From the NCBI RefSeq assembly GCF_046119375.1, contig NW_027368008.1, forward strand, positions 1-52,993: a stretch of DNA of 52,993 nt, read 5' to 3'. How positions within the stretch are numbered: position 1 is the first letter of the stretch; each line of letters begins with the position of its first letter. The DNA comes from Phyllobates terribilis (Eukaryota). The notes below the pieces were generated by a model that ran no database searches, was not told where the DNA came from, and saw only the letters and a list, made by a program, of their open reading frames with translations. The translations under genes were made by a program, and so were the position numbers. Positions 4,562 through 31,823 of this stretch are shown in pieces.

Positions 4562-5155
4562 TGTTGGGGCGGAATCATTGGGCCTAGTTGTGATACTCAT
4601 GGTTAGGGTTAAGGAAAAGCCCATGAGCCGAAAGCCCGTAGAAAAGGGAAGGAAAATGGTAAATTAAAAGGGATAGAGTGACGTGATTGACTTAAAATGG
4701 AAAGGTAGGGGACCATTTATTTCCCTATAAATAGTGGTTGGTAAGAAAATACATTGTTCACATTCTTTTTGCAGTACTGAAACTCTGCCAAAATATACAG
4801 AGAAGTGTCAGTCGAATTATTCCTCTTTGGAAATAATTTAAAAGGTTCGCGAGACGTTTCTCCTCATGAGGACTCGAGCTTTTTATTACCCTATTTACTC
4901 TCACTTAAACACTACATTACCCTCATTTGAGCCTCGACTGACTTGAGCATCGGAAAGCCAAATCCAGGGAGATCCCATCTGGGCTTGGTTGTGTAGGTAT
5001 ATCGAGTGAGGTGGTGTGACAAGCAATCGACCGAACCATCCTCAACTCTTGGAGCCCTTAACTCGACAACTTCCTACCCGAGCCAAGAAGAGAAGAAGCT
5101 TGGTTTCCAACCTCTCGCGAGACGTGTTGTATCGCGAAGAATCTGGGCATCAACA
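4562..5155 (+). repeat. 5' LTR of the Tat/Retand-like element (~594 bp)
   Basis: Begins TGTTGGGGC and ends GGCATCAACA. TATA box ctataaata at 4725-4733. Followed by a degenerate PBS-like ctagcgtcgaccgtcg. No second copy is available to confirm the borders. Confidence 0.7.
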
Positions 5156-5227
5156 CTAGCGTCGACCGTCGTTTCTTTTTCACACAGTTAGGCCACCCAA
5201 GAGTTTGAACGATGGAAAGTATAAAAA

Positions 5228-6720
5228 ATGCATCAAACTCGGGCAACTGCCGAGTCCAAGAATGACACCGCCAAGAGTCGAGCCTCCATGACTAGCATCG
5301 AAATCGCCGAGTACAATGAGTTCCTTGTTTGAAGGGAGAGGAAAGAACAACAAGACAAAGACAAAAACGAAAAGCTTCGTCGAGCAAAAGAAGAGAGGCA
5401 ATGCCAGGAAGATGAAGAGAGGAGGTGCTTGTTGGAGGATGAGGTGAGAATCCTACATCAAAGGGAGCTCGAGCACGCCAGGAACCAGCCTCGTCCATCC
5501 TCTCGGCTCCATGGTCGCGATCATGGCGCAAGACAATTGCGCTACTCCGAGCCACCTCGGCTGCAGTACGGACAATACGAGCGCATCTACGAACTCCAAC
5601 AACCTCCTCTAAAGCTGCACGAGCCTGCTTATGAGCCGCAACTCCTACTCTCGAGGTTCTACGAGCCAATCTATGAGCCACAACTCCCTTCACCAAAATT
5701 CCATGAGCCTTCCTACAATCCCTTTTACAATCAGATCCCCGAGTACCCCACTCACGATCAGTTCATTGGACCCCGTCCGAACGGTCAATTCTCTGCCCAA
5801 TTCGGTCATTCCCAGGGCACCAAGTTAGTGCAGGGTCGAACCCACAAGGAGGAACCTTTTTCGCCGATCATATCATCAATACACCCGCACGCGAGGATTT
5901 CAAATATCCAACGTCAAAGGACTATACAAGCGTCGAGGACTCTCGAGACCACATCAACCGGTACCGTTATACAATGTTGGCTTGCAACGCGGACGATGCA
6001 ACTATGTGTAAAGGTTTCCCGAACACGTTGTCAGGAATCTCCCTGTCATGGATGCTCTAGCTGCCCAAGCGAACAATCCAGAGCTTCGACGACCTCGAGG
6101 AGCGTTTCGTAACCCACTTCAGTGCCTCTAAAAAGCGAAAGGTGACGATGTTGCAAACCCAGGGGCTGAAGCAAAGAGTAGACAAATCCCTCGAGTCGTA
6201 TGTCAAGAGATTCGCAACAATAGCAATTGAGGCACACGACTTCACTGAGCAAGGGGCTAGGAAAGCATTTTTCGGGGGATTGTGGGACGACTCAGAGTTC
6301 AAGGATAGATTGGGACGAAACCAGGTGTATCTCGACTATGAGAAGATGATGTAGAAGGCGTACGACCAGATCGAGTCTGACAAGATCACAAGAAAAAACC
6401 AAGGCCAGGAAGGCTCGCGAAAACAGAGCCAAGCATCGGGTGTTAATCACAAGGGGAACCAGTCATGGGGACCCAAGAAGCAACCCGAGCAAACATCGCA
6501 AGACCCAGCCCTTCAGTTACAAGGAGGCCTAGGTCAGATGCAATTTCAGGCGCAGAACATGATGGGAACCGTGCAGGGAAACAGAAGGCGAGGTAGACCA
6601 CCCGCGACCCCAGCTCGAGGAATGTGGTGCACGAAACGTTGTAAAAACACCCATAATATCGCCAAGTGTCAAAGCATACATCGCGAGGCTGAATGAGAAG
6701 ATCGGAGGTTTATGGAAGCT
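5228..6720 (+). pseudogene. gag of the Tat element (stops and frameshifts)
   Basis: ATG 5228 (MHQTRA...) is in frame with ORF 5429-6112 across one stop. An adjacent frame gives the retrotransposon-gag-type LCKGFPNTLSGISLSW...FDDLEERFVTHF, continuing into ORF 6142-6354. Confidence 0.8.
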
Positions 6721-9700
6721 AGGCGAGCACAAGGCCAAATTGCCAACGATCCGGTTGCACCGTCCCCACAACCTCCTGTTTTCCCTCGAGTTGACGGTTT
6801 TGTTGGGACGATCACTGGGCGTCACCAGCCGAGAATGCCCAGTAGGCGGGAGCAGAGAAGGGCCTCCAATGCCCCATTGCCTCCCGGGAGGCCAATGATG
6901 TTGATAGCCGAGGTTGCTCGCAAGCCATACCAGCTACAATTCGATGACAACGATGTGGTCGAGTGGGAAAACAAGCAAGCCGACCTACTCGTCATCCATA
7001 TCCATATGGGAACGAAGATTGTCAAAAGAGTAATGATACATACTGGTAGTGCGGGGGACATAATCTATTTGGAATCCTATCAAAATCTCGGCCTCGAAGG
7101 CCAACAAAGTTCAATCTCATAGACTTTACGGGGGATTCTTTGAAGGAAAACTCGGGGTCGTCACAATTGACATGATCCTGGGTCATGAAGGTGGCCTGCG
7201 AAGGAGTTGCGCGATCGACTTTTCAGTCACCCCCCTCGCATCGTCTTACAACGTAATCCTAGGAAGATACTCATTAATGCGATCCGAAGCACTGGTGTCA
7301 ATCAACAATTTGTGCCCCAAGTTCCCAACCCAGAATGGAACAGGCACAGCTCGAGGCAATCAGGAATAGTGTGAAACATGCTACATTCAAGTTGAGCGTA
7401 ATGATAAGAAGGCGGTGCACGCAAACCAACTCTAGTTATCATGTTCACTCCGCACTGAAGGCGAGGCAGATCTGGACCCTCGAGAAGCTTCGCGATCATC
7501 TTCGGGGGAAGACACTCCTCCTACCTTCGTGGATGTCATGAAGCATGCTATCTCACCATTTGGCGAGGAAGAAAAGAGGTTGTACATCGACCAAGGGCTA
7601 CTTACAAAAGTCACCAAAGAAGTCAAGGCCTTGTTGGGGACCTCAAAGACGTCTTCTCTTAGACACTAAAAGATCTCAAGGGTATTCCCCCCGAGGTAAT
7701 GACTCACTCTCTTGATATTGATCCGCATGTAAAGCCTCGACGATAAAAGAAGAGAAAGCAAGCAGGCCCTAAAAATGAACGCTGCAACGGTAGAGCTCGC
7801 GAAGCTACTCAAAGCAGGATTTGTAGGACCAGTACAATACCCTACCCGGATCGTGAATGTTGTTATGGTGCCAAAGAAAGATACAGGCAAGTGGCACATG
7901 TGCGTCGATTTCACCGATCTAAACAAGGTGTGCCCCAAAGACAGTTATATGCTCCCAATCATAGATCAACTCGTCGACTCCAAAGCAGGTCACGAGGCCT
8001 TGAGATTTCTCGATGCATATTTGAGGTACAATCAGGTCGCGATGAACCCGGTAGACGCAGACCACGCGACTTTTATAACAGACAAAGGCACTTTCTGCTA
8101 CAGGGTCATGTCGTTCGGTCTTAAAAATGCAGGGGCCACCTTTCAGAGGCTTGCGGACATGGTCTTTCAAGGAAAGATTGTCAAGACAGTTAAGGCCTAT
8201 GTAGATGACATTGTGGTGAAGAGTAGAAGCCAGAAAGATCATCCGAGAGACCTGCACGAGGTGTTCGACACTTTACAAAAAATACGGCATGAGCTTGAAC
8301 CCCAAAAAATGTGTATTCAGGGTCATAGAAGGCAAGTTCCTAGGCTTCCAAATCAGTTTGCAAGGTATACAGGTAAACCCATCCAAAGTCTAGGCCGTCC
8401 TAGACATGAAGGCTCCTCGGACAACAAACAAAGTACAAAGGTTCATGGGGTCAGTAAACTACTTGGGAAGGTTATGTGCCAAGCTTGTCGAGAGGAACTT
8501 ACCATTCTTTGAGATCCTCAAAAAGCCAAAGCAATTTCAATGGACTCCAGAATGTGAAACGGCCTTCGCCAGCCTAAAAGAGCATTTGGAAAATTTGTTG
8601 ACCTTATCGTCACGTGTTCCAGGCAAAGCATTACAGTTATACCTTGCATCTAACTCGCGAACTGTAAGTGTTGTGCTTACTCGCGAGCAACAGAAACCCA
8701 TATACTTTGTCAGTAAGGCACTATTGCCGACCGAAGCCAATATTCATCGGTCTAGAAGACCATATTCACTTTAGTCATGGCAGCACGAAGACTAATGTTG
8801 CACTTTCATGCGCATACTATTCAGGTGTTGACCAAACTACCTCTGCGCGGGATTCTACACTGACCTACTTTATCCGGAAGAATGACTAAGTGGGCTGTTG
8901 AGCTTTCAGAAATTGATACTGAGTATCGCCCTCCGACCATTAAAGCTCAGGCGATGGCTGACTTCATTGTTGAAACAAGTTTTCGCGAGCTCGACAACTC
9001 ACCGTTCTATGCAAACCAACCGTGGAAGTTATACATGGAAAACGCAGTGAATGCTGAGGGTTGTGGCTCGGGAGTCGCGTTGTTCTCACCAGAAGAATAT
9101 ATATGTATGAACACGTGATAACTCTCGACTTCAACGCCACCAACAATGAAGTTGACTACGAGGCTCTGATCATTGGGCTCGAGTTTGCCCTCAAGGAGCA
9201 GGTAGAAGAAATCGAGTGCATTTGTGACTCAGAAGTGGTAGTCCAGCAGGTGCAAGGCATATATGAGACTCTAATAGGAAATCAACCAAAGTATCAAGCT
9301 TGGGTGGCAAGATTGAAAAATACGTTCAAGCATTTCCTCATAACTGCTATTCCCAGAAGTGAAAACGAGCAAGCAGATGGGCTCGCAAGACTAGCTTCGC
9401 AAGCTCAGTTGATCGATGTAAAGTCAGAAAGGAAATCTATGCTGATTTGGTATTGTTCTACTAGCATGAAGGCCATATCGAGCAGTTCGAGATGATGTCA
9501 ATCGACACTCCCGCAGACGACTGGCGAACCCACATCCTAAAGTATTTGTCACAGGAAAACCTACCAGAGGATACTCGTGAGCGAAAGAAGCTACAGGTGT
9601 AGGCAGCACGATTCTTCACATGCCAAGGAGAACTATACAAAAAAGGCATCATGACTCGCGAGCTGCGTTGCTTGTCTCAAGAAAAAGGACAAAGAATGCT

Positions 9701-10664
9701 CGTTGAGTTTCATGCTGGGTTGTGTGGCACGCATGTGGGATGGAGGTCGTTAGTATTTAAGGCCCTCAGACATGGCCATTTCTGGCTCTCGATGCGCGAA
9801 GATGTTGTGAACATCGCGAAGTCTTGTAAAGCATGCCAACCACATGCGCCAGCTTGCCATCAACCGGGGGTAGAGATGCAAATTATGGCAGGTCCGTGCC
9901 CATTCGCAATGTGGGGCCTAGATCTATTGGGGCCTTTCTCGTCAAAGGCGCCCGACCAATTAGAGTTCATCATCGTCGTAATTGACTATTTAACTAAGTG
10001 GATCGAGGCAGTTCCCCTGGCTAGAACAAATGTCCAAGCATTACAGAAGTTCCTTTGGCAGAATATAATTTGCAGATTTAGCCTCCCACAAGACATCGTC
10101 ACTGATAGAGGTCCCCAGTTTAATAAACCAAAGCTCGTCGACTAGTGTAGTGACTTGTGCATCAGACTGAAATTTGCATAAGTGGCGCATCCACATTGCA
10201 ATGGCCAAGTGGAAGCTGCTAATAAGAGTATTGTAACAGACCTCAAGAAGATACTAGACGGGGCGCGAGGTCGGTGGGATGAACAATTACCCCTCGTGCT
10301 TTGGGAAAATCGCACAACCGTTAAGAGAGCAACTGTGGAAACACTGTTTTCCTTAGCATATGGCGTCGAATCAGTCGTACTTGTAGAGCATATATTCCCA
10401 ACTGATAGAATCATACAATACAACGAAGAAGAAATTAGAGAAAAGATAGCTCAAGAGTTACAACTCAGAGAAGAGGCATGCGAGATGGTAGCTATCCGAG
10501 CAGCAAATCACAAGGTAGAAGGAGGAAAACTGGACCCAAACTGGGAAGTTCCCTATATCATTGAAGCCGAGGTAGCCCCATGAGCATACAAGCTAAAGGA
10601 CTGTGCTAGGAATCGCATCGCGAACTCTTGGAACGTGACACGGCTCCACAAGTACTATTCATAG
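6712..10664 (+). pseudogene. pol of the Tat element: protease, RT, RNase H, archaeal-type RNase H, integrase (fragmented)
   Basis: Protease RVMIHTGSAGDI (catalytic D replaced by H). RT WHMCVDFTDLNKVCPKD and AYVDDIVVKS. RNase H QKPIYFVSKAL. aRH ATNNEVDYEALIIGL. Integrase H-H-C-C zinc finger, PFAMWGLDLLGP, IVTDRGPQF, HPHCNGQVEAANK and GKLDPNWEVPY. Multiple stops and frameshifts. Confidence 0.92.
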
Positions 10665-10825
10665 TAGGAAAAGCCTCACCCCAGGTACATATTCCAAATC
10701 ATCCTTATCATTATCAATTCATGCATAGTGTACAAAACAAATAACCTTTCACTAACAAAATTCATAACAAACCACTCGTAACTTATAGGCGAGGCAGCAC
10801 GCAAGGGTTATCTGATCCTGATGCG

Positions 10826-12025
10826 TGACGAGCGTCGTTTAGCCGCGTCAAAATATTTATAAACCTCACTAACACCTCTACAAGTAGAGTGGCAAGCAAG
10901 GATCGATCCCACAGGGAGTCAGGTATTCAATTTTTGTATAATTAATAAGATCAACTTAATAATGATAGAAAAGGGGAAAAGTGGATTGAAGCTAAACCAC
11001 TAATCTAATCTAGGAAAGCAATAGAGAAAATACCGTATTCAGCGGGAATCCACACAACGGAATGGTTGGTTTGATCATTGACTTCTTAATTGTTATTCGG
11101 GTTCAATCTACTAATTTATATATTATGATTGTCCTAATCTTTGGTCCTAATTAGTTAATAATCCAACTCGGCATATTAACCCTCTCTAGATATAACTCTG
11201 AAACTATCAAAAGCTAATCCCTAGGCAGCATGAAGTTCAAGAATAAATAGGAACATGCAACGCCACTTGGCTACTAACACATCATCATTCTCCACACAAT
11301 AACAAGTCCAACTAGTCTAGGTAATTGATTTGCTACCCTATGGAAAGACTCTCCAACTCATACAGGTCAGACTTAGCAGTATGAATTAGATCTAAATAAC
11401 CTAGGTGATCAATATAAAGAGATAAATCATAGTCAATATCAATATGCACAAGATAATGAAACAAATCAAACAATATATATTTATTAGAACGAAGGAAGAA
11501 GTCTACAAACCAACCATTCGCAGGCTTCAACCTGGAGAACAACGCAAATTCTCTCTGAACTCTCTAAATTAAACTAGAACTAAGCATGGGAAGGAGACAA
11601 AGCTCTCATCCCTATTTATAAAATATAGAAACCTTAGAAACAATCACTAAAAGTCCCAGCCCGAAACTCCATCAGAAAATAGGTAAAAGGCCCAAACAAA
11701 GCCCGCATCAGATCTGAACTCGCGGCAAAAACCCTATGCAGGCACGGTCGCGTCAATGTGGGCGCGGTCGCGCCCACCTCCTTACAACATGGCGTGGTCG
11801 CGCCCTAGCCCAAGTGCTCCACCGCGGTTGCGTCTCCTTGTGCGTGTGAACTTTCTTTGTCCTTTGGCCATCTTCTCTTCAGTCTTCTCCCGAATGCTCG
11901 TAATCCTCGTGTTTAACCACTTTGCTTTGTGAGGTCCGGTCTACGGTAATATGCTCCAAATCATGGTCCATTCCATAAACGATGCTAACAACCACTTATT
12001 ACGCCATGCTAGACGCCACTCATCA
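10826..12025 (-). mobile_element. Athila-like solo LTR 1 (1200 bp)
   Basis: TG...CA ends with short TIR (tgacgagcgtcg / gacgccactcatca). 5-bp TSD atgcg/acgcg with one C>T difference. Contains gatcgatcccacagggag, typical near Athila LTR 3' ends, and GCGCGGTCGCGC-type repeats at about 11740-11835. Confidence 0.8.
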
Positions 12026-12189
12026 ACGCGCGAAGAAAGCAGTCAAAGTGAGAGATTTATCCTCACTCGACCGAATGAGATACGACTATCATACTTACAT
12101 AAGTGTATAGACCCCTCAAAATGAACAAAAAACTAACCTATAGCTATGTATTTCGCAGTACAAGCTAAAGCTTGAAGTGAAAAAGGGAC

Positions 12190-12705
12190 CAAAGACATCA
12201 GACTGAATCATCGAGAGTCATGTGCCTCGAGCCAGTCGTGAGTAGAGAACAAAGACATCGGACTGAACCATCGAGAGCCATGTGCCTCGAGCCAGTCGCG
12301 AATAGAGAACAAAGACATCGGACTGAACCATTGAGAGCCATGTGCCTCGAGCCAGTCGCGAGTAGAAAATAAAGCATCGGGCTGAATCATCGGGTGCCAT
12401 ACGCCTCGAGCCAGCCGCGATCAGATAAAGCACCGGGCTAAATCATTGAGTGCCACGTGCCTCAAGCCATCCACGAGCAAATGAAGCATCGGGCTAAATC
12501 ATTGAGTGCCACACGCCTCGAGCCAGTCAAGAGCAAATGTATCACGAGCTGAATCATCTAGTGTTGTACACCTTGAGCAAGCCACGAAAATATGAAACGC
12601 AATAGACTGAATCATCGAGGGCTATTCGCCTCGAGCAAGTCACGAACTAGTAGAGACATCGGACTAAACCATCGAGAGATACATGCCACGAGTTAGTCAC
12701 GAGTA
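12190..12705 (+). repeat. Tandem array of ~9 monomers of 55-60 bp in the Tat 3' region
   Basis: Three near-identical 60-mers (aaagacatcggactgaaccatcgagagccatgtgcctcgagccagtcgcgagtagagaac) at 12190-12369, followed by about six more diverged monomers. Confidence 0.92.
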
Positions 12706-15094
12706 TAAAAGAAAAAGTCCTCTCGCACAGAGGCGCCACAAAGCAGTTACAAGAGAAAAGGTAACAACCCTATAAGCTCTAAACATTCATTTCTCTCCTT
12801 AAAGTTACCAAAATAAACCAAGATGTGATATAGGTCGGAAGAGCAAAAGTCGCCACAGAATAAGGATAGAGTATTCCCTAGAAGCTGGGATCTAGACTAA
12901 GTTAAGGTACGTCGAAACGTAAAGCATGAAATACAACAGTATCATAACAGAAAAACCATAACATTGCATCGCGATGTAACAGGGAGACCCTTGTTACCAT
13001 ATATGAGAAACGTCACCTCAAGGAGCTCCAAGGCTAGAAAGGTAGAGCTTCGGTAAGTATAAACTTACACACAAAAAGCTAAGTATGCCATAAAAATACT
13101 AAGGTTCAGGGAAAACTATGCAGGTTTTTTTCAGGGACGGCTAAGACACAACAAGAAACGAGGAGACAACAGACCAAGGATCAAAGACAAGGATCGCGAG
13201 GATATAAGAATTCTTACGTATCATTCGAACTCCATGTTTTCCAGACTTCTTTTATTTTCCATGTTATGTAAATAGAATGTTCAAAGACTATAAGCCCTAC
13301 CTTTATATAAGTTTTATGGTATTAAATAGTATCCTCTCACTAAGACATGACACTCGCGACCCCCTTATTTCTACCTTTCATGCATGTGGTAATTTCCACA
13401 TAGCAGAAAAGGTAAGGGGTAGTAAAGGAGGATTGTGAGGGAAGCAAAACATAAAGCAAAGAAAGCATTTAAACAAAGCATTAAAACGAGCAAAAACAAT
13501 GTTATATTACAAGTCCCTTGGGACTACACCCAAAATATTGTCAAGTTCAGACAAGTCAAGCAAGAAATGATTCTAAGAGGTAGATTGAGGTGGGGAGGAT
13601 TGGCAGGGGGAGCATCATCTTTATCAGCACCTTTGATAGCATCTTTAGCAGCAGCGTGAGCCCTTCTCAGTTCTGAAAAGATAGTGGGGCCTCTTATCAC
13701 GTCACGCTCGCGACCAGGTGTGATCGGACTTTCCATGGGAGTGTCCTCGTTGTCCAAAGTGTAAGCACCAAGAGGAGGAGGGCTATAGCTCGACGTTATA
13801 AGAGGGTAGTCGAACAGTCTCTTCCCATCAAACTTGAAATTGGGAAAGCCCAGCTCAGCCTCCTAAAGCTTGGCCGCCTCATTGAATACTCAAATCTGGT
13901 ACTTAGAAAGAAAGTTCATGCGAGAAGCCTCGCGATGACCACTTGTGTATTCGTTGACCGCCTCCTCTTGATATATTTGAATGGCAATGACGTGATTCTC
14001 CGTTAAAGATTCGAGCTCGGTGACATGTCTCTCCTTTAAATCTTGGAGTTCAGTAGCCGGCACCTTGCAAGAACTATTTTTGGCCACCAGCTCCTTGACC
14101 CTTTTCTTCAGCTCCTCATCCTTCTCGGAAATCGTACGCTCTTGGAAAGATTTGCTAAGCTCTCTATGGCTCGAGTCTAGCTCATCGTAGTTCTTTAATA
14201 GGTCAGTCTTAGCACTCTTCAGACCTGTCTCGAACTTCTCCCCAGCCTCCATACAAAGTTGCACCGCCTAGAGACAGAAAAAAACAAATAAGAACGATGA
14301 AGAAGGGAGAAATGAGCAAACACAGTTCAAACTTACCTCCGTGAGAGGATGGATACCTCTGGTCGTATCATCTTTTATCATTCTCTCAAGTTACGGAGAG
14401 GGATTGGGCATGAGCAGTGTCCGGTTCATCGTACGTCTCACCAGATTCGGGGTAAGAAGAAAGCCCCCAGTACTCTGGCTCAAGACCCCCATAATGCTCA
14501 CAGAGAACTCGAATGACGCCTGAGTCAAAGAAGTAAGCACCATCTTCTCAACTTCTTTCCCTTTTTGCTTTTTCTTCGAAGGGTGAGGGGAGCTGCGAGA
14601 AGAGTTAGCCCTCTTACGGTGTAGTTGCTCTGACAAGGGAACAGAGTCCTCTTCAACGATTTTTGTGGTGGGAAGCATATGAGGGGGGTCCACCGGGTCA
14701 GGACCCATAGAGATGGACAAAGTGATGACGATATTAGCTGGCGCATGGTCTAGCCGAGGCTGGTGGTCCTCGTCATCTTCTATGATTAGGAAGTCAAAGC
14801 AATTTTCTGTTTCACAAGAAAACATAGATAAGAGTTAAGCAATCCGCAACACAAATAACGTGCATATCAAAGTTAAGTCTTCAAAGAGTCCTACTAGGAG
14901 GGGGAAGATGACTAAGACCACAACTTGCGAGAAACTCCATGGTTACGATGTCGTTATAATTATTCGAGCCAAGTTTAACGAAAGAACAAAAATCCTCCTT
15001 GGTCTTCTTGAGGTGCTCATCCGAGTATAAGGAAACCCACTCGCGAATCTCTATCACATGGACCTGGTGATTCACGTCATGCTCTTTGGCAGGC

Positions 15095-16365
15095 TGATTG
15101 GCGGCATTTCATACATCATAAGGAGTGGATATTAGCATCAACCATAGGCAAAAGAGGCCACAAATGGAGCATATGGCCGTAATCCAGACATCGCGGAGCA
15201 AAGTGTCTAATACAAGGATTATGTGCACAAGGAAGAAGGCGCAGAAAGCGGAGAGCAAGCACGGGCCGAGAAGAGAAGAGAAAAGAGGCAAACTGCCTGG
15301 GCGCGACCGCGCCAGAGCTCACGCGACCAAGACAAGGCAGCTGCCCAGTGGTGGGACCGCGCCACACAAGACGCGACCGCGCTTGACGTTCTGCAGATAG
15401 CGCGATCGTGCCGTTAGACGCGTGCCCGCGCCTTCACTAATTCCAACGTCCCGCGAAGTCCGACTTTGTGGGCTTAAATGGGCTTTTCTACCTAGGTTTT
15501 GTACAGTTTCGGGCTAGGCTTTCCACATACTTTAATTTAGGGTTTTGCTTTCTTATAAATAGAGGAGCTTTGCCTCCTCCCAATCATCACATTTCTCAAA
15601 GAATAATAGAATAGTTTTGTTAGGATGAAGAGGGAGTAATCTCCTTTGCTTTGTTCTCCGGGCTAAGGCCTGCGGAGGTAATGGGTATGTAGATTTCCTC
15701 CTTTGGTTCTAATAATATGTTAATGTGTTGTTTTAATCTCTTGGTTGTTTAGTTATTGATTGCAATATGTTTATATGGCTTAGATACCTAGGTTTACATG
15801 TTTCCTTCATATAGCCAAGGCTTGGTTTATCCTAGTTGGAGAACCTTGTCTACTTAGTGGCATAAATCTCTACTTGGACTAGTTGGACTTGTAGGATAGG
15901 GAGATTAATGAGGTGTAGGCGCCAAGGTCAATACACTTTCCTATTTATTCATGAACTTAATGTTGCCTAGGATTTAGTCTTGATAGTTTCATGGATTGAT
16001 TGGTAGGTAAGACGCTATTAGGACTAGTTGACCTATTTAGCGACTCTAGTACATGGATTAGGACAAACATAGCATATAATAAAGGAGATTGAACCCAAGT
16101 TGTAATAGAAAATCAATGATCAAACCCATAACTTCGTAGGTAGATGCTTAGGAGAACAAAGCGCTTGCTTTTATTAGTTTTCCAAATCAATCAATCATAT
16201 TTCCCCCCTTTTCCCTTTATTTATTATAAAGTTAATTGTTTTGCAAAGACAAGATCGGACCCAGAGACTCCTTGTGGGATCGACTCTTACTTGTTGCCAC
16301 TCTACACCTGTAGAGAAATAAGCTACGGATTACTTTGACCGGATTGCCTATGACATCGTCCGTCA
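15095..16365 (+). mobile_element. Athila-like solo LTR 2 (1271 bp)
   Basis: Begins TGATTGGCGG and ends CATCGTCCGTCA. TSD caggc/taggc with one C>T difference. Contains ctataaata (~15555) and ctccttgtgggatcgac near the 3' end, plus GCGCGACCGCGC repeats at about 15298-15420. Confidence 0.8.
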
Positions 16366-16828
16366 TAGGCTTCACCAAAATCCATCAGTGAAGGCACCCC
16401 ACCTCGTTGCTCGACATTTTATATTGAGGGTTATACTTGCAGGAGCAAGTAATTAGACCCCAGTTGTAAGAGAAGGGCTTGTACAAAGCGCAGAAGAGGT
16501 GAGCAGAAGGAGTATAGCCGATCTCCTGGCACCGAAGCTGAAAAGCCGCCACGTACCTCTAAAAGTTTGGGTGAAGTTGTGTAGGGCTTAGTTGCTCCTC
16601 CTCGAGAATGTCTCTCATAAACTGAGGGATCGGGAGCCTGAAGTCTGTCCATAGAGCGTGCCGACTAAGGGGGGAAATACTCACCATAATCGTCGAGGTA
16701 TTCCCCACTCGTGATCTGCAAAGTGAGAACAGTCCCCCGAGGGAAGGGAAACTCCTTGGCGTAATCCGCTAAGTGAAGGGTCTTGACCGTAGATTGTGAG
16801 GGCTTGATATTCTTGCCCGGAAGAGTAC

Positions 16829-18450
16829 TGACGGAGGCGATTGTCGTGATCGCCAAGATCAAAGTAAAGTCCCAACTCATATTTCACTAGTACAGTGGTA
16901 AGTAGGGGTCGAATCCCAAGAGAGTCAGTGATAGTCTATTTCTATGATGCAACTAGAACATAACCAGAGGGGTTTTTTGTTGCTGTATGTAACTAACGTA
17001 TTTAAATCAATGAAAGTAGTAAGAGATTGTTGTAACAATGATTGGGAGAATGATCTCACTTCCTTTGTATCCACACAATGTTCATGATAGATTGTTGATC
17101 ATCGAATTCTACTAACATATGTTCATATCGTATAATTTAGTTGTCCTACTCTTTGTTCGTAAATAGCAACTAGTCCAAATAGTCCTAGAAACCCTTATTG
17201 TAATCAATAACCAAGGAAATCCCAAGGTTCAAAAGCACAATAGCATAAAGATCAAAGATAAGTAGGCTCATGCAATACCATTGGCAAATAGCCGATACTC
17301 GACATGAGTTCATAATCTCTACACAATAAGCACTCGCAAATAGTCTATGCAAATCATGCTCGCTACCTAAAGGTCAAGGCTTTTCAAATAGAATTGTCAA
17401 GTCCTAGCAATATGAATGATAATAACTAAACCTAGCGTGCACTCTAGATGAAATCAAGATCAAACAATAATAATATAAAGCACAAGAGATTATGAAACAA
17501 TCCTCAAATTAAACCAAAACATATGAGTTTGAATTCTCACAACAAATCTAAGAACAAAGGTTTCAACTTGGAAGTGAACTACAATGGATTTAGTTACTCA
17601 TGGCCATAGAAGCCATGAATAACAATGGATGAAGGTAGAAAACGAACCAATGTATGATGAACGATGAAGAACTCTCCCAAGCAAGCCTCCCAAAACATAA
17701 ACTAGAATTTCTCCTCCTAAGTTATCTACTTATATAGTCTTCAACTCAAAAGGAATAAAATAACTGAAACAAATACTAAAAGATATGGAAATCCTATAAA
17801 ATAATAATAAAAATCTCGCAAAGAACATCATCCCGGGACCGTCATCTCGACCGAGATCTCACATTCTCGATCGAGATTCTTCCCTGTATAGATTCTGATC
17901 ACTCCTATCTCGACCGAGATCACACATTCTCGATCGAGATCTTCACTTCTCGGTCGAGATACATCCTTCTCAATCGAGATCTTCACTGCAGAAACTTCTG
18001 ATAATACTTTCTCGACCGAGATTGGTAATTCTCGATCGAGATCTTCACTTCTCGGTCGAGATTCCTGGCTTTCGATCGAGATTTGCATCTCTGAATGTCT
18101 TCTAAGTTTCTGTTGCTCTTTCTCGGTCGAGATCCCTCTTCCTCGGTCGAGATTCTTCACTGCTAAGGTGATATGCAACTCCACAAGCTTCGAGGCAGCT
18201 CGGCTTCGCCTCTTAGCTTCTCCAACGGTGTAGGCGTGGCTAATCTTCATCTAGCTCCATCCCGAATGTACTAAAGACGAGCACAAGCGGGATCTCCAAT
18301 ACAGAAGCCATAAAAACGCTTACGAGCATTCCGCGAATCTACAAATGAACTCCTAACCTAGATTCCGGAATTACCACTCGTCAAGCACCTAAATACCACT
18401 AAACCTAAACTAATAGTCGCTGGTTAACACCATATAATAAGCTCCTATCA
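16829..18450 (-). mobile_element. Athila-like solo LTR 3 (1622 bp)
   Basis: In element orientation it starts TGATAGGAGC and ends CCTCCGTCA. Perfect TSD AGTAC at 16824-16828 and 18451-18455. Contains ggggtcgaatccc near its 3' end. Confidence 0.88.
17845..18152. repeat. Array of 12 quasi-palindromic TCTCGA(T/C)CGAGA 12-mers inside solo LTR 3
   Basis: Copies at 17845, 17865, 17908, 17928, 17948, 17968, 18010, 18030, 18050, 18070, 18121 and 18141. Confidence 0.9.
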
Positions 18451-18584
18451 AGTACACTTTACAGGGGATACTCGACCATCCAAGATCAGGACGGGAGAAG
18501 CGTGAGTTACTACCACGACAGGAAGTTCGCAAGGTACGTAATGAACGAAAGGCAGGGGTGGTGGAAAGGTGTCATAGAAGATCT

Positions 18585-19722
18585 CTTGCGACCTAGGGAC
18601 GATTGTCTGGGAACTCGGACCCGCCTCGTCTCTAGTACACCCACGAACCTCATCCCTCTCGTCGGCCAAAGCACGAAAGAGGCTCGACGTGGACGACGAG
18701 TCTATAGAAACCTTTGAGCTTCGTACAGAGGATGTACTACTCACTACAAAGAGAAGAGAAAGAGTCAGTTTTCCCGGTATAAGCAACCTCGCAAAGATAA
18801 GGAAAGGGTTCGTTGTCAACCCTCATCGACAGGAAAAATGAACAAGGGAAGAGAATCTTCGCGAGGTACCAGAAAACTATGACTTGAGAAAAGAAAAGAA
18901 AATAAATGATAAAAAGGTAAAAATCATGTGTATTGAGTCGCGCAAGCTCAATACACATGATTTTTATCTCTTCCCTTCTTCTCTCTCTCTCTCTCCCCTC
19001 TTCCCTTATCTTCTCTTTCTCTTCATTCTGGCAAAGACATATTAGGGTTCTATTGTATCCCAATATCGAGTGTTGAGGGGGAGCGACTTAGGAGTAGCCA
19101 GTTTTGCAGACAAAGACTTCGACTAAAGAAGGACGAAGGCGATTGAAGGAGGAGGAAAGTGATTGGAGAAGAAGGAGGAAGGCGATTGGAGACGATGGAG
19201 GAAGGATATTGAAGACGAAAGTTCTCGAGTCGAACCAGGTGATCGAAGACGATGGCTTTGAAGGCGATTGAAGAACAAGGAAGGCTAACAAAGGTATCGA
19301 TACGGGGGGTTTGTTATAATTAGGTTTAGATTTGGGGTTTTTGAAATTAGGGTTTTAAATTGGGATTTCACGGTCTCGATTTGGGAATTTGAATTGGGGG
19401 TTTCAAATTAGGGTTCAGAATTATGGATTTTAGGGTTGTGAATTGCCAAATTTTAATCACAGGTTTTAGATTAGGGATTTTAGTTAGGGATTTAAAATTA
19501 GGGTTTCGAATTGTGGATTTCAGGTTGTGAATTGCCGATTTCAATTGCGAGTTTGAATTTGGGGTTTTAATTGGGGATTTCAAATTAGGGTTCCGAATTA
19601 TGGATTTCAGGTTGTGAATTTGTCGATTTGAATTGCATGTTTGAAATTAGAGTTTTTCGATTTGGGGTTTTTAATTTGTGGTTTTGATTTGGGGAATTAA
19701 AATGGGGATTTCAATTAGGGTT
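18585..19722. repeat. Copy A of a ~1.1-kb direct duplication (Tat antisense-gene 5' part plus TTAGGGTTT-rich segment)
   Basis: Aligns closely with 21848-22945 from cttg(c/t)gacctagggac to atttcaattagggtt. ORFs 18448-18819 and 21807-22082 are near-identical at their N-termini. Confidence 0.92.
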
Positions 19723-21847: not shown

Positions 21848-22945
21848 CTTGTGACCTAGGGACGATTGCTTGGGAACTCGGACCCGCCTCGTCTCCAGTA
21901 CACCTACGAACCTCATCCCTCTCGTCATCCAAAGCATGAAAGAGGCTCGACGTGGACGAGGAGTCTATAGAAACCTCTGAGCTTCGTACAGAGGATGTAC
22001 TACTCACTGCAAAGAGAAGAGAAAGAGTCAGTTTTCCAGGTATAAGCATCCTCGCAAAGATAAGGAAAGGGTTCGTTGTCAACCATCGTTGACAGGAAAA
22101 ATGAACAAGGGGAGAGAATCTTCGCGAGGTACCCAGAAAACTATGACTTGAGAAAAGAAAAGAAAAGAAATGATAAAAAGGTAAAAATCATATGTATTGA
22201 GTCGCGCAAGCCCCCCCCCCCCCCCTTTCCCTTATCTTCTCTTTCTCTTCATTCTGGCAAAGACAGATTAGGGTTCTATTGTATCCCAATATCGAGTGTT
22301 GAGGGGGAGCGACTTAGGAGTAGTCAGTTTTGCAGACAAAGACTTCGAAGAAAGAAGGACGAAGGCGATTGAAGAAGGAGGAAAGTGATTGGAGAAGAAG
22401 GAGGAAGGCGATTGGAGACAATGGAGGAAGGATATTGAAAACGAAAGTTCTCGAGTCGAACCAGGTGATCAAAGACGATGACTTTGGAGGCGATTGAAGA
22501 ACAAGGAAGGCTAACAAAGGTATCGATACGGGGGTTGTTATAATTAGGGTTTAGATTTGGGGTTTTGAAATTAGGGTTTTAAATTGGGGATTTCACGGTC
22601 TCAATTTGGGAATTTGAATTGGGGGTTTCAAATTAGGGTTCAGAATTATGGATTTTAGGGTTGTGAATTGCAAAATTTTAATTGCAGGTTTCAGATTAGG
22701 GAATTTAGTTAGGGATTTAAAATTAGGGTTTCGAATTGTGGATTTCAGGTTGTGAATTGCCGATTTCAATTGCGAGTTTGAATTCGGGGTTTTAATTGAG
22801 GTTTCAATTTAGGGATTTCAAATTAGGGTTCCGAATTATGGATTTCAGGTTGTGAATTTGTCGATTTGAATTGCATGTTTGAAATTAGAGTTTTTAATTT
22901 GTGGTTTTGATTTGGGGAATTAAAATGGGGATTTCAATTAGGGTT
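21848..22945. repeat. Copy B of the ~1.1-kb direct duplication
   Basis: Direct copy of 18585-19722, with a C15 run at 22211-22225 where copy A has a hairpin arm. Confidence 0.92.
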
Positions 22946-23138
22946 TCGAATTGTGGACTTCAGGTTGTGAATTGCCGATCTAAAGTCCACCACCCGCTCA
23001 TATAAACGAGTGGACCGGACTAGCCGGACAAGATGCGTAAATTATCATATTCATACACATCCATTTTTCTGGACAGACTGGGCAGACACAGAAGCCGGTC
23101 CAGTTTTGCTCAGATCTATGAGCATGATATATCGGGTA

Positions 23139-26106
23139 TCCCTACTACTATAAAAGTGGGAAGGCGCTTATCTACAGTAGACTTATATTATTATTTTATT
23201 CCTTCTGTTCCGTTTTTATCTTCCCACTTCCCTTTTCCGGTGTCTCATTTTATATTATTATTTTATTCCCTTCGTCCCTTTTTTATCTAAATGAAAAGTG
23301 GGAAATAAAATAATAATATGTAAACTACTGTTACGGGAAGTGGGCGCTTATCTACAGTAAACATATATACTATTTTATCCCCTCCGTCTGTTTTATCCCT
23401 ACTACTATAAAAGTGGGAAGGCGCTTATCTACAGTAGGCTTATATTATTATTTTGTTCCTTTCATTCCGTTTTTATCTTCCCGCTTCCATTTTCCGGTGT
23501 CTCATTTTTATATTATTATTTTATTCCGTTCGTCCCTTTTTTTATCTAAATGAAAAGTGGAGAATAAAATAATAATATGTAAACTACTGTTACGGGAAGT
23601 GGGCGCTTATCTACAATAAACATATATACTATCTTATCCTCTCCGTCTGTTTTCTATCTTCCCGCTTTCCTTTTCCGAAGTCTCATTTTTATATTATTTT
23701 ACTCCCTCCATCCTTTTTTTATTTAAATGAAAAGTGGAGAATAAAATAATAATATGAAAATTACTGTTACGGAAAGTAGGCAGATAAAAATGGTATACCG
23801 AAAATCCCTACTACTATAAAAGTGGGAAGGCGCTTATCTACAGTAGACTTATATTATTATTTTATTCTATCCTTTCCGTTTTTATCTTCCCGCTTTCCTT
23901 TTCCGATGTCTCATTTTTATATTATTATTTTATTTCTTTCGTCCCTTTTTTTATCTAAATGAAAAGTGGGAACAAAATAATAATATGTAAACTACTGTTA
24001 CGGGAAGTCGGCGCTTATCTACAATAAACATATATACTATTTTATCCCCTCCGTCTGTTTTTTATCTTCCCGCTTTCCTTTTCCAATGTCTTATTTTTAT
24101 ATTATTATTTTACCCCCTCCGTCCCTTTTTTATTTAAATAAAAAGTGAGAAATAAAATAATAATATAAAAACTACTGTTAAGGAAAGTAGGCAGATAAAA
24201 TAGTATACCGGAAAAGGAAATGGGAAAGATAAAAAAAGCGACGGAGGGAGTAAAATAATAATATAAAAATGTGATACCGAAAAGGAAAACGGGATGATAA
24301 AAAAGGGACGGAGAGAATAAAATAATAATATAAAGACTGTTGTTCATAAGGTGTTCCCGCTCCTTTTTTATCTTTCGTTCCATCCGTCCCATAATATAGT
24401 TCTCATTGTTATTTTGACGCTATTGATGCCCGAAGTTCATTTTCTCTATTCCTGTTAATGTGCAAGGAAAAACAAAGTCATGGAGATTTTGTTTGATTCG
24501 TCTCGATGAGTACTTTAATAATATAATTTTTTTTATAATTTACACTAACATACAATGATAGATATCAATGACACAAACTGTATATCGTCAAATGTATAGA
24601 AACAAATAGGAACTATATTATGGGACAAATGGAGTATTAGGAGAGGAGAATTTGTACTGGATAGAGTGAAAGTGCATTGAAAGTTGAAAAAAAAATGGTT
24701 GAAAAGTAGTTTCTATAAATGAAAAATGAGAAGATAAAAATGGAATACCGGAAAAGTAAAGTGGTAAGATAAAAAAAAAGGACGGAGGGAGTAAAATAAT
24801 AATACAAAGGTAGTAAAGCGGAAAGATCAAAATAGGACGGAGGAAGTCAAATAATAATATAAAAATTGGACACCGGAAAAGGAATGTGAAAAGATAAAAA
24901 AGGAATGGTAAAAATAAAATAATAATATAATAATCTTCATTCAATATACAATTATTACTCTTTCTCTCTATCTCTTTCCTCTACAATTATTACTCTTCAC
25001 TTTTTCATTAAAATCCGTGTATTCGGTCAAACAGAAAAACAACATAAGGATGGAGAGAGTACTTCAATCAATTGGCCCAGCAAATAAAAATCAATTAAGA
25101 TACATGGTTTCAGGTTGTAATCTAAACTATTTATTAGACAAACACAACTTACATTATAAACTACATAAAGATTACATTTCTCTCTACAATTACAAATAAT
25201 TGAGTAACTGTGAATTCCGGTTTATTGAAAATAGGTTAATGCAGGGAAACAACAAGCTACAAAATATTACGTGCTACCTTACACCATAAAAAACTTACTT
25301 TAAAAATATCAACAACATATTAACCCTCAGAACTATTGAAAAAGTAATTAATTTATCAATTCTTGGAACCAAATTGTTCGTTCACGCCACTTTTAAAACC
25401 TTAAATGACATAAGAATATGAATGAAAAAAAAATCCTAAAGTACTCTAATACAGGGAAGAAGAAAAGAAAAAAAGTTGAAAGAGTTTTCTATGAAGATAG
25501 TATACTCAGTTATTCACAATCTTAAAGTATTCCAGGTCATTTACTTTGTCAGCTACCTATGAAGATTGACGAAGCGTCTCTCTTTTAAAACTAATAGTGT
25601 CGTGAGCTTGATACAAGCTAACCTCTCAAAACTTTGGTAAAAAAAATTAATGTTTTTTTATATGCAATAAATCTTGTGTATAAGATCTATATAATAGACC
25701 AAACATGAGATAACTTCGTTTTTGTTTTGCAGGTCCCTACTCATGTCTAAAATCTTTTATCCATTTATGGAGTACAGAATTATCCACAAAGAGACGTAAA
25801 GGTTGAAGAAAATAAGAGCCTAGAGATGATGCTTTCATATTCTCGATTTGTTATACATGTACTGTCCTAGAAACTGTGCTCAACCGAGAGAGCTTATAAC
25901 CCTATAGATTCTACCATCACGAGTTAGGGAGCTATATATCAAAATATATGCCCAAGTGTACACTAAAAACTTAATAAAGTGGTGTTACTAATATCTTATA
26001 GTGACATGTATTCTACAACAAAGAAAATAACTAAATTGTATCTTAACATTCGACTAATAAAGTAAACAACACAAGTCCGCGTGCGAAGCACACGAATCAC
26101 CCCTAA
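23139..26106 (+). mobile_element. Non-autonomous Helitron with a tandemly repeated 5' end
   Basis: 5' A^TCCCTACTACTATAAAAG at 23139, repeated at 23396 and 23805. 3' GC-rich hairpin cgtgcgaagcacacg (26080-26094) followed by CTAA^T (CTRR consensus) at 26103-26107. Confidence 0.72.
24378..24634. mobile_element. Stowaway MITE nested in the Helitron
   Basis: TIRs ttccatccgtcccataatatag / ctatattatgggacaaatggag followed by TA. The left terminus is degraded. Confidence 0.7.
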
Positions 26107-26852: not shown

Positions 26853-29800
26853 TTACACATTCTCGCGAGTAATGAGATCCATGACAGCATGCTTCAGACT
26901 CCCATTGTTCTTCTTCAGAGCCTCCCTGTTCGTCTCTCCATCCTCAAACCCCATTCCGCGCATTTCTTCCAGAAGCAAATCCCACTCAGAGACGTTACAA
27001 AGCTCGTCCAGCGACTTCTCGAAGTCATACTCGTTCTTCTTCAGAACCTTCTTGTTGACCTCCACCTGCTTGAACCCCATCTGTTCAAGCTCGTTGAGGA
27101 GAGCGTCTTCGACTTCGGACTTGGTGGTGGTGTTGTCCTCTTCGATTCTGGGGTAGGTGACGGAGCTTGAGGAAGGTATAGGTTGAGTGGGACCCGCATT
27201 GGAAACGGGGTGGGTGTTGTTAAAGAGAAGGTTGTTATTGAGTAAGTTGAGATTGTATGCTTGCTGGTGGTTCAGCATGAACTGTTGCACTTGCTTGGCC
27301 ATCAAGGGGTCTATTTGGTCAAGTGGGTCGATAGGATCTTCTAGAGGCTCGACGACAGCGTGTGGGGTGTTGTTCTCTGCAGTGCCTTCTGGAGGTAAGT
27401 TTAGGTTTAGGGTGTTTGGGAGTGTTGAAGATGATTCCGGAAACGATGCATCCACCTGTTTTAGCAGAGAAATGAACGAGACTAAGAAAATGGATAATTA
27501 ATGACGAAATAATAGTTATATGCCATGTTATCAAAATCACGAGCTGATCGTTGGCCAACAGACTCGTGAAACTCGTTTTCTGCATTTTTGGAGACTATGC
27601 CTTGTGATTGAAATTTCATATTTATACATTTAAAAACTAAACAGAATTGAATGAGTTACTATAATAGTATATGGTATATAAAACATAGGTTTTATTAACA
27701 TAATTAAGCTAGGAAGATTTTACAACTTTCACAAAAAAATATCAAATCAATTTCTTTAGGCGTTTATATATTATATTTACATATGTTGTATTCATATTAT
27801 ATACTCCCGATACAAATACTTGTCACACAAACAAAGATAAAGGAAAAAGTTAGTAAAATGACAGGTACTTGTATCCAACAAAATTGCTCTAAATTAACAT
27901 GTATTTATATCCAGAGGAAGTATTAATTTATTATTAGTTTAATACTTTAGTAGACTCTTCCATCCAAGTGAAGAGTATACTCTCGAGTTCCATAACCTTG
28001 TTTATATGTTAGTATATGGTATTTTTTTTACATACAAATTTGAGATTAAGAAACTAGGAACAAATTAGAAGTGTAAATATGTAATTAAGAAGAGGTTAAC
28101 CTGAATTAGAACCCAAACACGCTGCCCAAACTTCTGACCAGAGGATGAGGCCATTTTCCAGTAGGAGATGTACCGTCCAGGTAATTCGGGTGCAATGAAA
28201 TCAACTGCAACATCAACTTCATTTTCTGGATAGAACCCAGATACAGGAATCTGTTTTTTTTTTTTTTTAATTTGGTTAAAGAAAACAATGTCAGAAAGCC
28301 AAAAAAAAAAGAAGCATACTTACTAAATAAACTTGCTGAATTAAGTACCTCGATTCCAACAGAGCTAGTTGGGCTGAACTTATCTCCACCAATCCAGACA
28401 AGCTGAGTACCGTGAATCCATGGGAGATTGCCATTGTTACGCATTCTCCAGATCTTGGTGAAACGGGTATTGGGAGCCATAATTGTACCATCCATAACAT
28501 TGACATCTAATATGAACCGGCTGTCAAGCTTTGGTTTCAATTGCTTCATATGCTTACCGAAAAATCTCAGTGGAGGTGGAGGGTGACCCCAAGGCTTCGG
28601 CTGCGGCAACTAAAATGATTAAGGAAGGTAAGTACTTCTATCTTAACTCAGTAATTTATGTTAGAAGTTAATAATAATGTCCTGAATTTATGCTATTTTG
28701 GTAGAACCCTTAATCTCCGAATCTCCCACCCGGAAATTTGTTAGAGAATCTCCAATTTTCATATATATTCATTTAATTAAGTCCCCTTTTCATCAAGACC
28801 AACATTAGCTTAAATAGGAAACCTATCAGCTGTAGTATGAACATCAGTTAGTGGAGTGGGTACACTAATTTCAGGAATTAAAACTGATAATTATAATTAG
28901 CAGAAAGTATTAAGTAGTTAATAGTAGTAGATTATATTTTGGTTCTAAGAATAAATCATATTTCAATTCAGTGTTAAAGCACATACTGAGACTGTACTCA
29001 TTATTACTGAATTGAGAACATAGAAAAATGGAGGTTCTCATTAATTTCCTACTTTTTGTGACAATTAGTTGTTTCCTTAAGGTTAGATATAAGGGTCCAT
29101 TCGGCAACACCTAGATGGAGTTTTTTTCCAACTACGAATTGGGATATGAAAATTTTCAGAGAAATTAGATGAAATTTGTGAAAGGTAAATTAAAATTTCT
29201 CTGACATAGGAGTAGATAGAATTTTGCTCACAAAAGGTGGTAGACAATGACCTAGATGGACAAGCTGAAATTTACCCAATTTCAGCTACTTCTATTTGAT
29301 TTTAAACATTGCAAAACGGACCCTTAAGTGGGTTTTATCACACCTTATATATGTCCAAGAGAAGAGTAGAGTAAGGGTAAAAGTGTACGAAAGTACTCAC
29401 ATATGGGCTACTCTTGAGGGACCATGGGTAACGATAGGGAGCTGGAAAATCAATCCTTATATAATCAGAATCTTTACCCATTCCAATTTGCTGAAAGCAG
29501 ATTTTGCATAAATCATAGTCCAATTTCCTGCAAGGAATATTAACTACCATTATTTACTCCGAGTAGCAAATTGATATAAAAGAGAATGGAGGGAGGGAGT
29601 ATTATTATTACAGTTTGGATTTGAAGCGAGGCCCAGTGATAGGATGAACACCACATCCATCACACTGAACACCTCTGTGGAAAATGTTATCCTTAGAGAA
29701 CATAGTGGGTGCGTGTTGCATAGAAAGACCACCAAATGGGCATTCACTGGTTGTACTTCTTTTTCCTTCCTCCTTTGTAACTCCAAAAGGTTTCATTTCA

Positions 29801-31823
29801 GCTTCTGAAGTAGCAGCAAAACCAGCAGTTTCTTCTTTGTTAATAGCTTTTCTCTTTGCCGCCTCAAGCCTACGTGCATAAATCTTCTGCAAATCTTCTG
29901 AAGATGCAGTTTCTTTACCAGAAGAAGTTGCAGATGCAAGCTGTTTCCTCTGAGCTTCTAAAGCAACATGCATAGCTAGCATGTCCATTGAGTTAGGGCA
30001 ACCACTAGGCTTCCTCTCAACCTCCCCAAATTGTGGATGAGGGCCCTCCTGTTAGGACACTAGAAAGTCTCAGAATATTCATACTGGCAAGAAGAAGAAA
30101 AAAAAAGAGTACAGAAAAATGGAGATTCTCCTCTAAGTATGACTTTTCAGGAATGGATATAGAAATGGCTCATAATCATACGGCCATACCTGTTGTTTGG
30201 TATATCAGTATATGGATATCAAGTTGATATAATCATTTTTATTAGGATATCACTGCCTCTTATTTATTTTAAATATTGCTTTTTAACCAAACTCCTTTCT
30301 TCTTGTTGATGAATACCATGGTTGTTCTCAAAAATATCAACCAATCTATATCATACCAAATGCAAATATAAGATATCAATCTCATACCTATAGAAACTTC
30401 AGTCAGAAATCCAGAAGAAGACATGAACGAAATGAAATCTATCACCTAGTCTTATAAATGTAAGTGCTACCTATATCACTTTGTGCACATGAATAAAATG
30501 ATCCCTATCATAAAAACAAACTAAGGATGTCAGTTTTTCATATGCTAAGATTTAGGTATCTTGAAGACCAATAGTCATAGCTATTAAATCAAAAGGAGTA
30601 CAACTCAACAATCTTAGCAAATTGATACGCAAGTTTCTTGATATGGATAAATAAGACTTTTCAGAGAAACTAAGAGAAAGATAAGAGGAACTCAATAATC
30701 TTTACCTTTTTGTTCTTCTCTGAAGCTGAAGCAACATTTACTTTCTCATTCTTGTGTGCATTTAAGAAGGAATCGGCAGCAGAGGTAATACCCTCAACAA
30801 ACTCACCAAGTATGGGAGCACTAGAAGCAGTCCTAGAAGCCACTTGAGCAGCGAGATCCGAGAGATACACACGAAGCGGCTCAGGCATTGTTTTAAGAAG
30901 ATCAGCTATACCAGGATAGATATTATCCTGTGCAGGAAGTGGAGTAGATGTACCACTAGACTTGACAGAAGCTGCAGATGAAGTGTTGATCTTGACACTT
31001 ATTCGCACTGGATTGAGGCCTTGATTTAAGACATCATGCAGATCTTCATCATCAACCAGTGCAACGATATCATCATCTTCATCTTCATATGTCATCTCCA
31101 ATTCAGATTCAGGAGTCAAACTGAAGAGAGAGCGGATTTTGGCTCTCAGACCCTCAAAATCAAGCTCCAATTGCTGGTTTTCGTTCACAGCAGCATTGAA
31201 ACGCCTAAGCTTGTTTTCATATTTCACCTGAAACACACAGACAAAAGTAATTAGAACAAGCACAAAGAAAGCTAGATGGTAAAGGTTTAACCATATTAGA
31301 CCAACGCTCATAGCTCAATAGGTAAGGACTGTTAACCAAGCAAAAATTGTTACAATTCTTAATTCTGACTTCAACAATTACTGTATCAAGTTATTTTAAG
31401 CTGAGTAATTCAATTATCCTATTTTATATCACACTCACACTTGATTGATACTGTTTAAATTATTTGAAACAATTTCGGCCAGAGCCAGCAACTTTTTTCA
31501 CTTCAGCAAGTTATCAGTACCACCAAACCGGAAATAGTTCGTAAAATCAAGAAAATCGCAATGATCAACACAATAAAAGAGAGAATCCGCAAAGAGAAAC
31601 CTTTTTCCACCGACTTAAACCATAAACAGAAAAATCCAGAGCGAGAACCCCTTGAACGGATAAAAACAGAAAGAAAATCAAACGCGCTGAACAAATAATC
31701 AAAAGCACGCACAGCAACAACAACATGCAAGCCACAAACTCAAAGGCAATCAAACACAAAACTACCAGAAATCAGTAAAATGGAGATGGAAAATCGAACC
31801 TTGACAACCACAGAGGACGCCAT
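26853..31823 (-). CDS. NBR1: NBR1/Joka2 selective autophagy receptor, 707 aa
   Basis: Exons (minus) 31823-31800, 31227-30706, 30048-29612, 29527-29401, 28609-28349, 28250-28101 and 27455-26853 join in frame (2124 nt). PB1 domain (VVVKVKYENKLRRF...YEDEDDDIVALVDD), ZZ finger (CDGCGVHPITGPRFKSK...YDLCKIC), FW domain (FTKIWRMRNNG...FGQRVWVLIQV), two UBA domains and an AIM-like WDLL. Confidence 0.95.
29093..29323. mobile_element. Tourist-like MITE in NBR1 intron 4
   Basis: TIRs gggtccattcggcaa / ttgcaaaacggaccc with TAA/TTA flanks. Confidence 0.65.

Follow-up and report, generated by a model that had tools for sequence, protein, structure and literature searches.

A dead copy of an antisense TRP28 gene with a probable four-exon structure in a truncated Retand-type retrotransposon

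Retand elements of the Ty3/Gypsy long terminal repeat (LTR) retrotransposons have LTRs of 315-1194 bp, a long region between pol and the 3' LTR, and 5-bp target-site duplications (TSDs); antisense open reading frames (ORFs) with a TRP28 domain occur in 97% of their recently active clusters, and the function of these ORFs is an acknowledged open question (PMC11963269). An additional RNase H between RNase H and integrase is given as the mark of Ogre and Retand in PMC6317226. A correct gene model is a precondition for testing the function of TRP28 ORFs, and ORF finders overlook a start exon of 7-19 nt and report the protein as two or three fragments. We analyzed a stretch of 52,993 nt (Phyllobates terribilis assembly GCF_046119375.1, contig NW_027368008.1, positions 1 to 52,993 of the forward strand), called the window below, which contains a Retand-type element with an antisense gene on the minus strand. 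With a probability of roughly 0.7, this gene is a dead copy of a Retand accessory gene, which in the family is under selection, has four exons and likely its own promoter, and would encode a nuclear protein that aids the multiplication of the element.

A first-pass annotation of the same DNA had assembled ORF fragments at 13524-18819 into one minus-strand gene of about 740 codons with two introns. We searched the same assembly for further copies, obtaining 50 matches with DNA and 152 with protein; 10 contigs (11 copies) of the former and 20 of the latter were combined with the window copy into a set of 32 copies, selected for similarity or mostly for long open frames. In other copies, the sites of solo LTRs 2 and 3 are uninterrupted and the gene pieces lie end to end, so the middle of the assembled gene was correct and removal of the two insertions, both flanked by TSDs (Table 1), does rejoin it. 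The sequence of solo LTR 3 also forms both LTRs of another element in L032. The frameshift proposed near 16670 was located in the C-run at 16674-16669, where many other copies remain in one frame. The two ends of the gene had to be revised, however. At the 5' end, an intron and an ATG micro-exon had been missed, and at the 3' end the family stop is a TAG at 13575-13573, beyond which the window frame reaches 13524 only via a second frameshift near 13593 in exon 4. The predicted product is about 710 residues long rather than 740, and a younger copy with an intact frame has 712 codons.

The two GT-AG introns of the first-pass annotation, introns 2 and 3 in our numbering, have their ends exactly where it placed them, and their borders are conserved across the 32 copies. 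GT and AG are each present in 28 copies at intron 2, and in 31 and 30 copies, respectively, at intron 3; at interior positions, the most frequent dinucleotide is shared by a median of 13 copies in intron 2 and 12 in intron 3, and by at most 26 and 27. Lengths vary over the copies from 80 to 94 nt (intron 2) and from 65 to 80 nt (intron 3), and a branch-like YTRAY motif precedes the intron 2 acceptor in 31 of the 32. The GC content in the window is 35% in the introns and 48-52% in the exons. The segments thus have the sequence features of spliceosomal (U2) introns, namely GT..AG ends, a branch point, a U-rich body of low GC content, in-phase joins and a neutral interior. In one reference younger copy, exons of 19, 972, 464 and 681 nt join in phases 1, 1 and 0 into the 712 stop-free codons, and the family as a whole very probably shares this structure of four exons and three introns. 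The pieces could alternatively be separate short ORFs, with TRP28 in one and a coiled coil in another, and with GT and AG present by chance; PMC11963269 did count 104 antisense ORFs in 63 clusters. This is highly improbable: exons 3 and 4 are constrained although the alignments show no start signals belonging to either, reading phase is kept across all three junctions, and no interior dinucleotide is as well conserved as those at the borders.

The 5' end at 18819 had been taken as coding, and this was rejected: 18819-18744 is the 3' end of a third intron (intron 1). The acceptor alignment had 31 rows, three of them without homologous sequence, leaving 28 that were counted. The branch motif CTAAY is present in 27 of these 28 (the window has CTGAC) and the acceptor AG in 23, and a pyrimidine tract also lies upstream of 18743. 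Read in the earlier frame, 18819-18745 contains a stop in 19 of 28 other copies, with 23 stops in 673 codons compared with 10 in 2637 directly downstream, and the frame from 18819 has no ATG. About 600-700 nt upstream, all 12 younger copies contain an ATG micro-exon ending AG|GT(C/T)AG, in phase 1 in 11 of them, and a TATA box lies about 180 nt above it, near the 3' LTR, in 11 of the 12. Among further copies, 7 of 16 have an ATG in phase 1 with this donor, and the micro-exon is 7, 10 or 16 nt long. Twenty copies, from both subfamilies, conserve an inverted repeat (18866-18787) with an inner helix just upstream of the intron 1 branch point; pairing holds in 92% of its cells, compared with 44-58% when the arms are slid. 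Covariation in the repeat is slight, as changes on the two sides together occur in only 3 of 16 pairs and shuffled data equal that (412/500); the repeat may be an RNA structure or, alternatively, a palindrome bound by protein.

The antisense gene in the window copy cannot work and is a dead fossil, because its promoter and start exon are lost and its frame is interrupted nine times, by five internal stops, two frameshifts and two solo LTRs. Homology with relatives stops at 18945, within a fold-back palindrome, and the copy has lost the 3' LTR as well as about 800 bp that include exon 1, the promoter and the polypurine tract (PPT). The stops had been described as isolated and in several cases of the CGA/CAG type, which holds for two of the five; one is another transition and two are neither. 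Exon 4 has also lost 60 nt in frame, and about 700 codons are left. The window copy belongs to an older group and shares 74% identity over 1.6 kb with its nearest relative. The palindrome is joined to a foreign repeat with TTAGGG-rich units, both within 18912-19722, and this repeat is also found on three other contigs. At another locus (L047:2000-7200), two decayed copies of the antisense gene lie in tandem.

Selection was measured as the ratio of nonsynonymous to synonymous differences (pN/pS), by pairwise counting pooled over 66 pairs of 12 younger copies, the pairs not being independent. The four coding parts gave values between 0.17 and 0.26 (Table 1), close to the 0.17 of integrase in those same copies. 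Shifted frames gave 1.2-2.2, the opposite strand in matching register 1.1-1.6, and whole introns 0.59-0.93 in any frame. Between the window and older copies, the median ratio of substitution rates (dN/dS) was 0.16-0.38, which is biased downward since some pairs are saturated and poorly aligned codons were filtered out. With ratios far below 1, these codon comparisons show the antisense gene to be under purifying selection across the family, with an exon-only constraint as strong as that on integrase. Neither a loss of the GT/AG borders nor a dN/dS near 1, two outcomes that the first-pass annotation had named as refuting it, was observed. A functional antisense RNA was suggested as a possibility in PMC7264820, and the antisense transcript rather than a protein might be the product. 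It is scarcely credible that this is so here, since the constraint is specific to codons and to one strand, and RNA as the sole function is largely refuted.

The first-pass annotation had also proposed that antisense introns survive reverse transcription, and both segments it described are retained in all 32 independent copies. LTR pairs were 90-98% identical in 8 of 12 elements tested; one further element had a pair at 83% identity, and in three no pair was found. Exact TSDs were present in 4 of the 12. Among older elements, three of nine pairs gave an LTR identity of 85-89%. These copies represent separate retrotransposition events, all of which carried the introns. A captured host gene was considered and ruled out, as the antisense gene moves with the LTR-bounded copies. 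Retrotransposition reporters use the established rule that intron signals lying opposite to the genomic RNA strand escape splicing ahead of reverse transcription, so that such an intron passes unchanged. The introns here read GT-AG only on the antisense strand; the sense genomic RNA would stay unspliced at these sites, and because it is this RNA that is reverse transcribed, each new copy would inherit the introns. A natural element displays the reporter rule, and since antisense introns are inherited unchanged, ordinary spliced genes resembling those of a host can be part of LTR elements.

In the predicted protein, TRP28 sits within a folded domain of about 235 residues, and the other parts are a basic linker and a coiled coil, in agreement with the earlier description of an antisense TRP28 and coiled-coil gene. 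The profile search with PF04195 (Transposase_28) matched the window with an E value of 4.1e-8, above the curated cut-off, and positions G, P, L, P, N and F of the motif are conserved in the protein alignment. AlphaFold2 on a 24-sequence alignment gave a mean predicted local distance difference test score (pLDDT) of 71.8 and a predicted template modeling score of 0.72 over 235 residues; a first model with a pLDDT of 55 was too poor and was not used. With 235 residues folding in this model, the predicted domain far exceeds the 69 positions of the Pfam model. Exon 3 contributes a cluster of basic runs. Protein database searches returned only five short plant-like ORFs as distant homologues and no full-length homologue among longer proteins, which is weak evidence. 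Three plant homologues, 28-33% identical, end 2-4 codons past a Ser/Gly at or near the phase-1 donor of intron 2, and these end points hint that intron 2 may be widely shared, as far as protein sequence can indicate. Hits in the ESM Atlas were confined to Transposase_28 or to unnamed plant clusters, and contig scans found no relatives in metagenome and viral contigs. Foldseek gave no match at E <= 0.001 against the PDB and viral structures, libraries without predicted plant structures. The best VIA-align matches had Z 3.8 (root-mean-square deviation 3.1, 52 aligned) and Z 3.4 (5.3, 74 aligned), and the best PDB sequence match had an E value of 0.98. The fold searches support neither a new nor a different fold.

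Several points weigh against the proposed structure and product. Splicing is deduced from sequence signals, and the 31 copies are selected and related, so the border counts are not independent. The evidence for a coiled coil in exon 4 consists of weak Pfam matches, below threshold, to various coiled-coil families, and 10 of 12 distinct gaps in exon 4 of the younger copies are not multiples of 3, which fits decay or assembly error. The intron 2 donor is weak (GTAGG), and in most of the 12 younger copies intron 2 is 87 nt long, in frame and free of stops (0 in 355 codons); in addition, six of eight copies with a damaged intron 2 border have a length of 3n, with which retention is possible. Splicing of intron 2 may then be optional in the younger subfamily, where partial or complete retention would yield a single long frame carrying a hydrophobic insert. 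Its pN/pS in that open frame is 0.80, however, not below the other introns and without codon constraint, its length is not a multiple of 3 in 16 of the 32 copies, and its branch point and AG are conserved, making retention decidedly unlikely.

In the proposed explanation, the antisense gene would be transcribed from the internal TATA promoter, the transcript spliced at three introns, and the protein imported into the nucleus, where it may oligomerise and bind nucleic acid or chromatin of the element in trans. This binding is the step with the least support, and through these steps the protein would help the element multiply. The first-pass annotation had suggested a silencing suppressor or chromatin accessory protein, a role not directly supported by the present analysis. 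With the same gene structure, the protein might instead counter silencing in a sequence-specific way, by recognising a short motif that recurs through its own element, by analogy with the VANC proteins of VANDAL DNA transposons, which act against silencing through such a motif. VANC is mentioned in PMC11728184, and DNA binding by TRP28 is predicted in PMC11963269. The candidate motif TCGCGA occurs 24 times in the host element, compared with 9.9 expected (24 of the 26 sites in the window, 4847-18859), and is absent from both the nested solo LTRs and the copia element. The motif is present within the conserved inverted repeat of intron 1 and ranks first among palindromic hexamers in 3 of 10 element stretches (the window, L035/36 and L056/85). 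Its excess is a feature of older copies, however, and is slight or lacking in most younger ones, with 2-5 sites against 2-2.7 expected, and no likeness to the plant mobile domain (PMD) or to any family other than PF04195 was found in the 24 alignment members. An anti-silencing role of this kind is unlikely. A wider proposal, which we consider rather doubtful, is that the Retand TRP28 gene is generally an ancient multi-exon gene whose exons are counted as ORFs in catalogues that miss the micro-exon, and that it encodes an anti-silencing factor that binds DNA in an element-specific manner and has an unsolved fold.

The host element is a dead, 3'-truncated Retand (Tat VI) Ty3/Gypsy LTR retrotransposon that begins at 4562. 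Pfam matches in its gag-pol are PF00078 (7733-8272), PF17919 (8394-8771), PF13456 (9058-9492) and PF17921/PF00665 (9603-10142), and the additional RNase H lies between RNase H and integrase, as in Ogre and Retand. The LTR lengths (594 bp here and 470-600 bp in relatives) and the 5-bp TSDs of four relatives are those of Retand, the window copy having no 3' LTR; self-comparison found no second LTR copy in the window. The PBS-like sequence TGGCGCCGACCGTGGGG was found in younger copies of the family. An antisense TRP28 ORF lies between pol and the 3' LTR, as in Retand, with PF04195 in the window and in 24/24 alignment members. The extra ORF (eORF) with PF10536 (PMD), expected of Ogre, is absent from the 24 alignment members, and an Ogre-type intron between gag-protease and reverse transcriptase (RT) is not seen; in a younger copy, gag and RT share a single frame that spans at least 934 codons.

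Table 1. Features of the host element and its antisense gene in the window (TSD, target-site duplication; PPT, polypurine tract; pN/pS from 12 younger copies)
Feature	Position	Strand	Remarks
5' LTR of the Retand-type element	4562..5155	+	594 bp, TG..CA; 72-84% identical to LTRs of relatives
Degenerate primer-binding site (PBS)	5157..5172	+	position equivalent to TGGCGCCGACCGTGGGG in younger copies
Decayed gag-pol (RT, RNase H, additional RNase H, integrase)	5213..10663	+	outer limits taken from sequence
Nested solo LTR 1	10826..12025		TSD ATGCG/ACGCG; 69% like solo LTR 2, inverted orientation
Tandem array of 55-60-bp units between pol and antisense gene	12181..12715		also in relatives
Exon 4, likely coiled coil and conserved C-terminal region, two internal stops	13573..14267	-	pN/pS 0.24
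Intron 3	14268..14336	-	69 nt, phase 0, GTAAGT..TAG
Exon 3, linker rich in acidic residues and proline, carrying a basic cluster (possible nuclear signal) and one stop	14337..14806	-	pN/pS 0.22
Intron 2	14807..14894	-	88 nt, phase 1, GTAGGA..CAG, branch-like YTRAY
Exon 2, last piece	14895..15094	-	50-72% amino-acid identity to most copies
Nested solo LTR 2	15095..16365		1271 bp; TG..CA; TSD GCCTA/GCCTG
Exon 2, middle piece with Transposase_28 (~16660-16478), frameshift 16674-16669, two stops	16366..16828	-	PF04195 match; pN/pS 0.17
Nested solo LTR 3	16829..18450		1622 bp; TG..CA; TSD GTACT/GTACT
Exon 2, first piece (Ser/acidic N-terminal region)	18451..18743	-	pN/pS 0.26; acceptor immediately upstream
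Intron 1 remnant	18744..18945	-	branch point 18768-18764, AG 18745-18744, inverted repeat 18866-18787
Fold-back palindrome where the element ends	18912..18972		exon 1, promoter, PPT and 3' LTR missing
Local duplicate of 18585-19722 (exon 2 start, intron remnant, foreign flank)	21848..22945 (junction and flank, 21848-22980)		90% identity; 3.2 kb away

The window also contains flowering-plant genes. The first of two host genes (26853-31314) is presumably an NBR1-like autophagy receptor gene (PB1, Ig-like, UBA), and the second (44233-48459) we take to encode a plant intracellular leucine-rich repeat (LRR) protein, both names following from domain architectures. All 150 TRP28 matches among those listed lie on small contigs (C3192-C8133), as do all of the best 150 of 163,520 RT candidates (C3188-C8955); the contigs fetched with relatives are 35-83 kb each in an assembly of 10.6 Gb. 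The window contig is probably stray plant DNA within an animal assembly. A full-length Ty1/copia element with 289-bp LTRs of 93% identity lies on the minus strand at 36765-43326, and AT-rich direct and inverted repeats of 100-270 bp, possibly nested small transposons, cluster at 23124-24934.

This kind of accessory gene is already known, and its exon-intron structure was not found in print. In the literature covered, no report of introns in a TRP28 ORF was found. The word 'intron' is absent from the main text of PMC11963269, and the accessible parts of PMC12786077, PMC9784723, PMC11728184, PMC13392006, PMC5580714, PMC9289625 and PMC8365987 contained nothing on such introns. A search for 'antisense and spliced transcripts' is called for in PMC7264820.

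The closest described systems are the antisense TRP28 ORFs of Retand (Vicient 2025, PMC11963269), which share with this gene the antisense orientation, the position after pol and before the 3' LTR, the TRP28 domain, the tandem array next to pol and the short LTRs. That survey was made with ORF Finder, whereas the gene described here appears to have four exons with an ATG micro-exon and a predicted folded unit of about 235 residues. The eORF of Tat lineage VI, 'Tr28 domain fused with CC' (Ustyantsev 2015, PMC4408406), likewise has TRP28 followed by a coiled coil in one protein, and that lineage has the additional RNase H between RNase H and integrase; the accessible part of the paper differs in giving no intron for the eORF and mentioning only the gag/pol intron of Ogre. 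Maize Grande gene23, as reviewed in PMC7264820, is also an antisense gene with its own upstream promoter and a nuclear protein. The brtn gene of Botrytis Boty is similarly antisense between pol and the 3' LTR, but it is fungal and, as far as tested, unrelated in sequence. Spliceosomal introns in plant Ty3/Gypsy elements are known from Ogre and from env-like splicing, according to PMC6317226 and PMC7264820; those introns lie on the sense strand and their persistence needs partial splicing, whereas the introns described here lie on the antisense strand and would need none.

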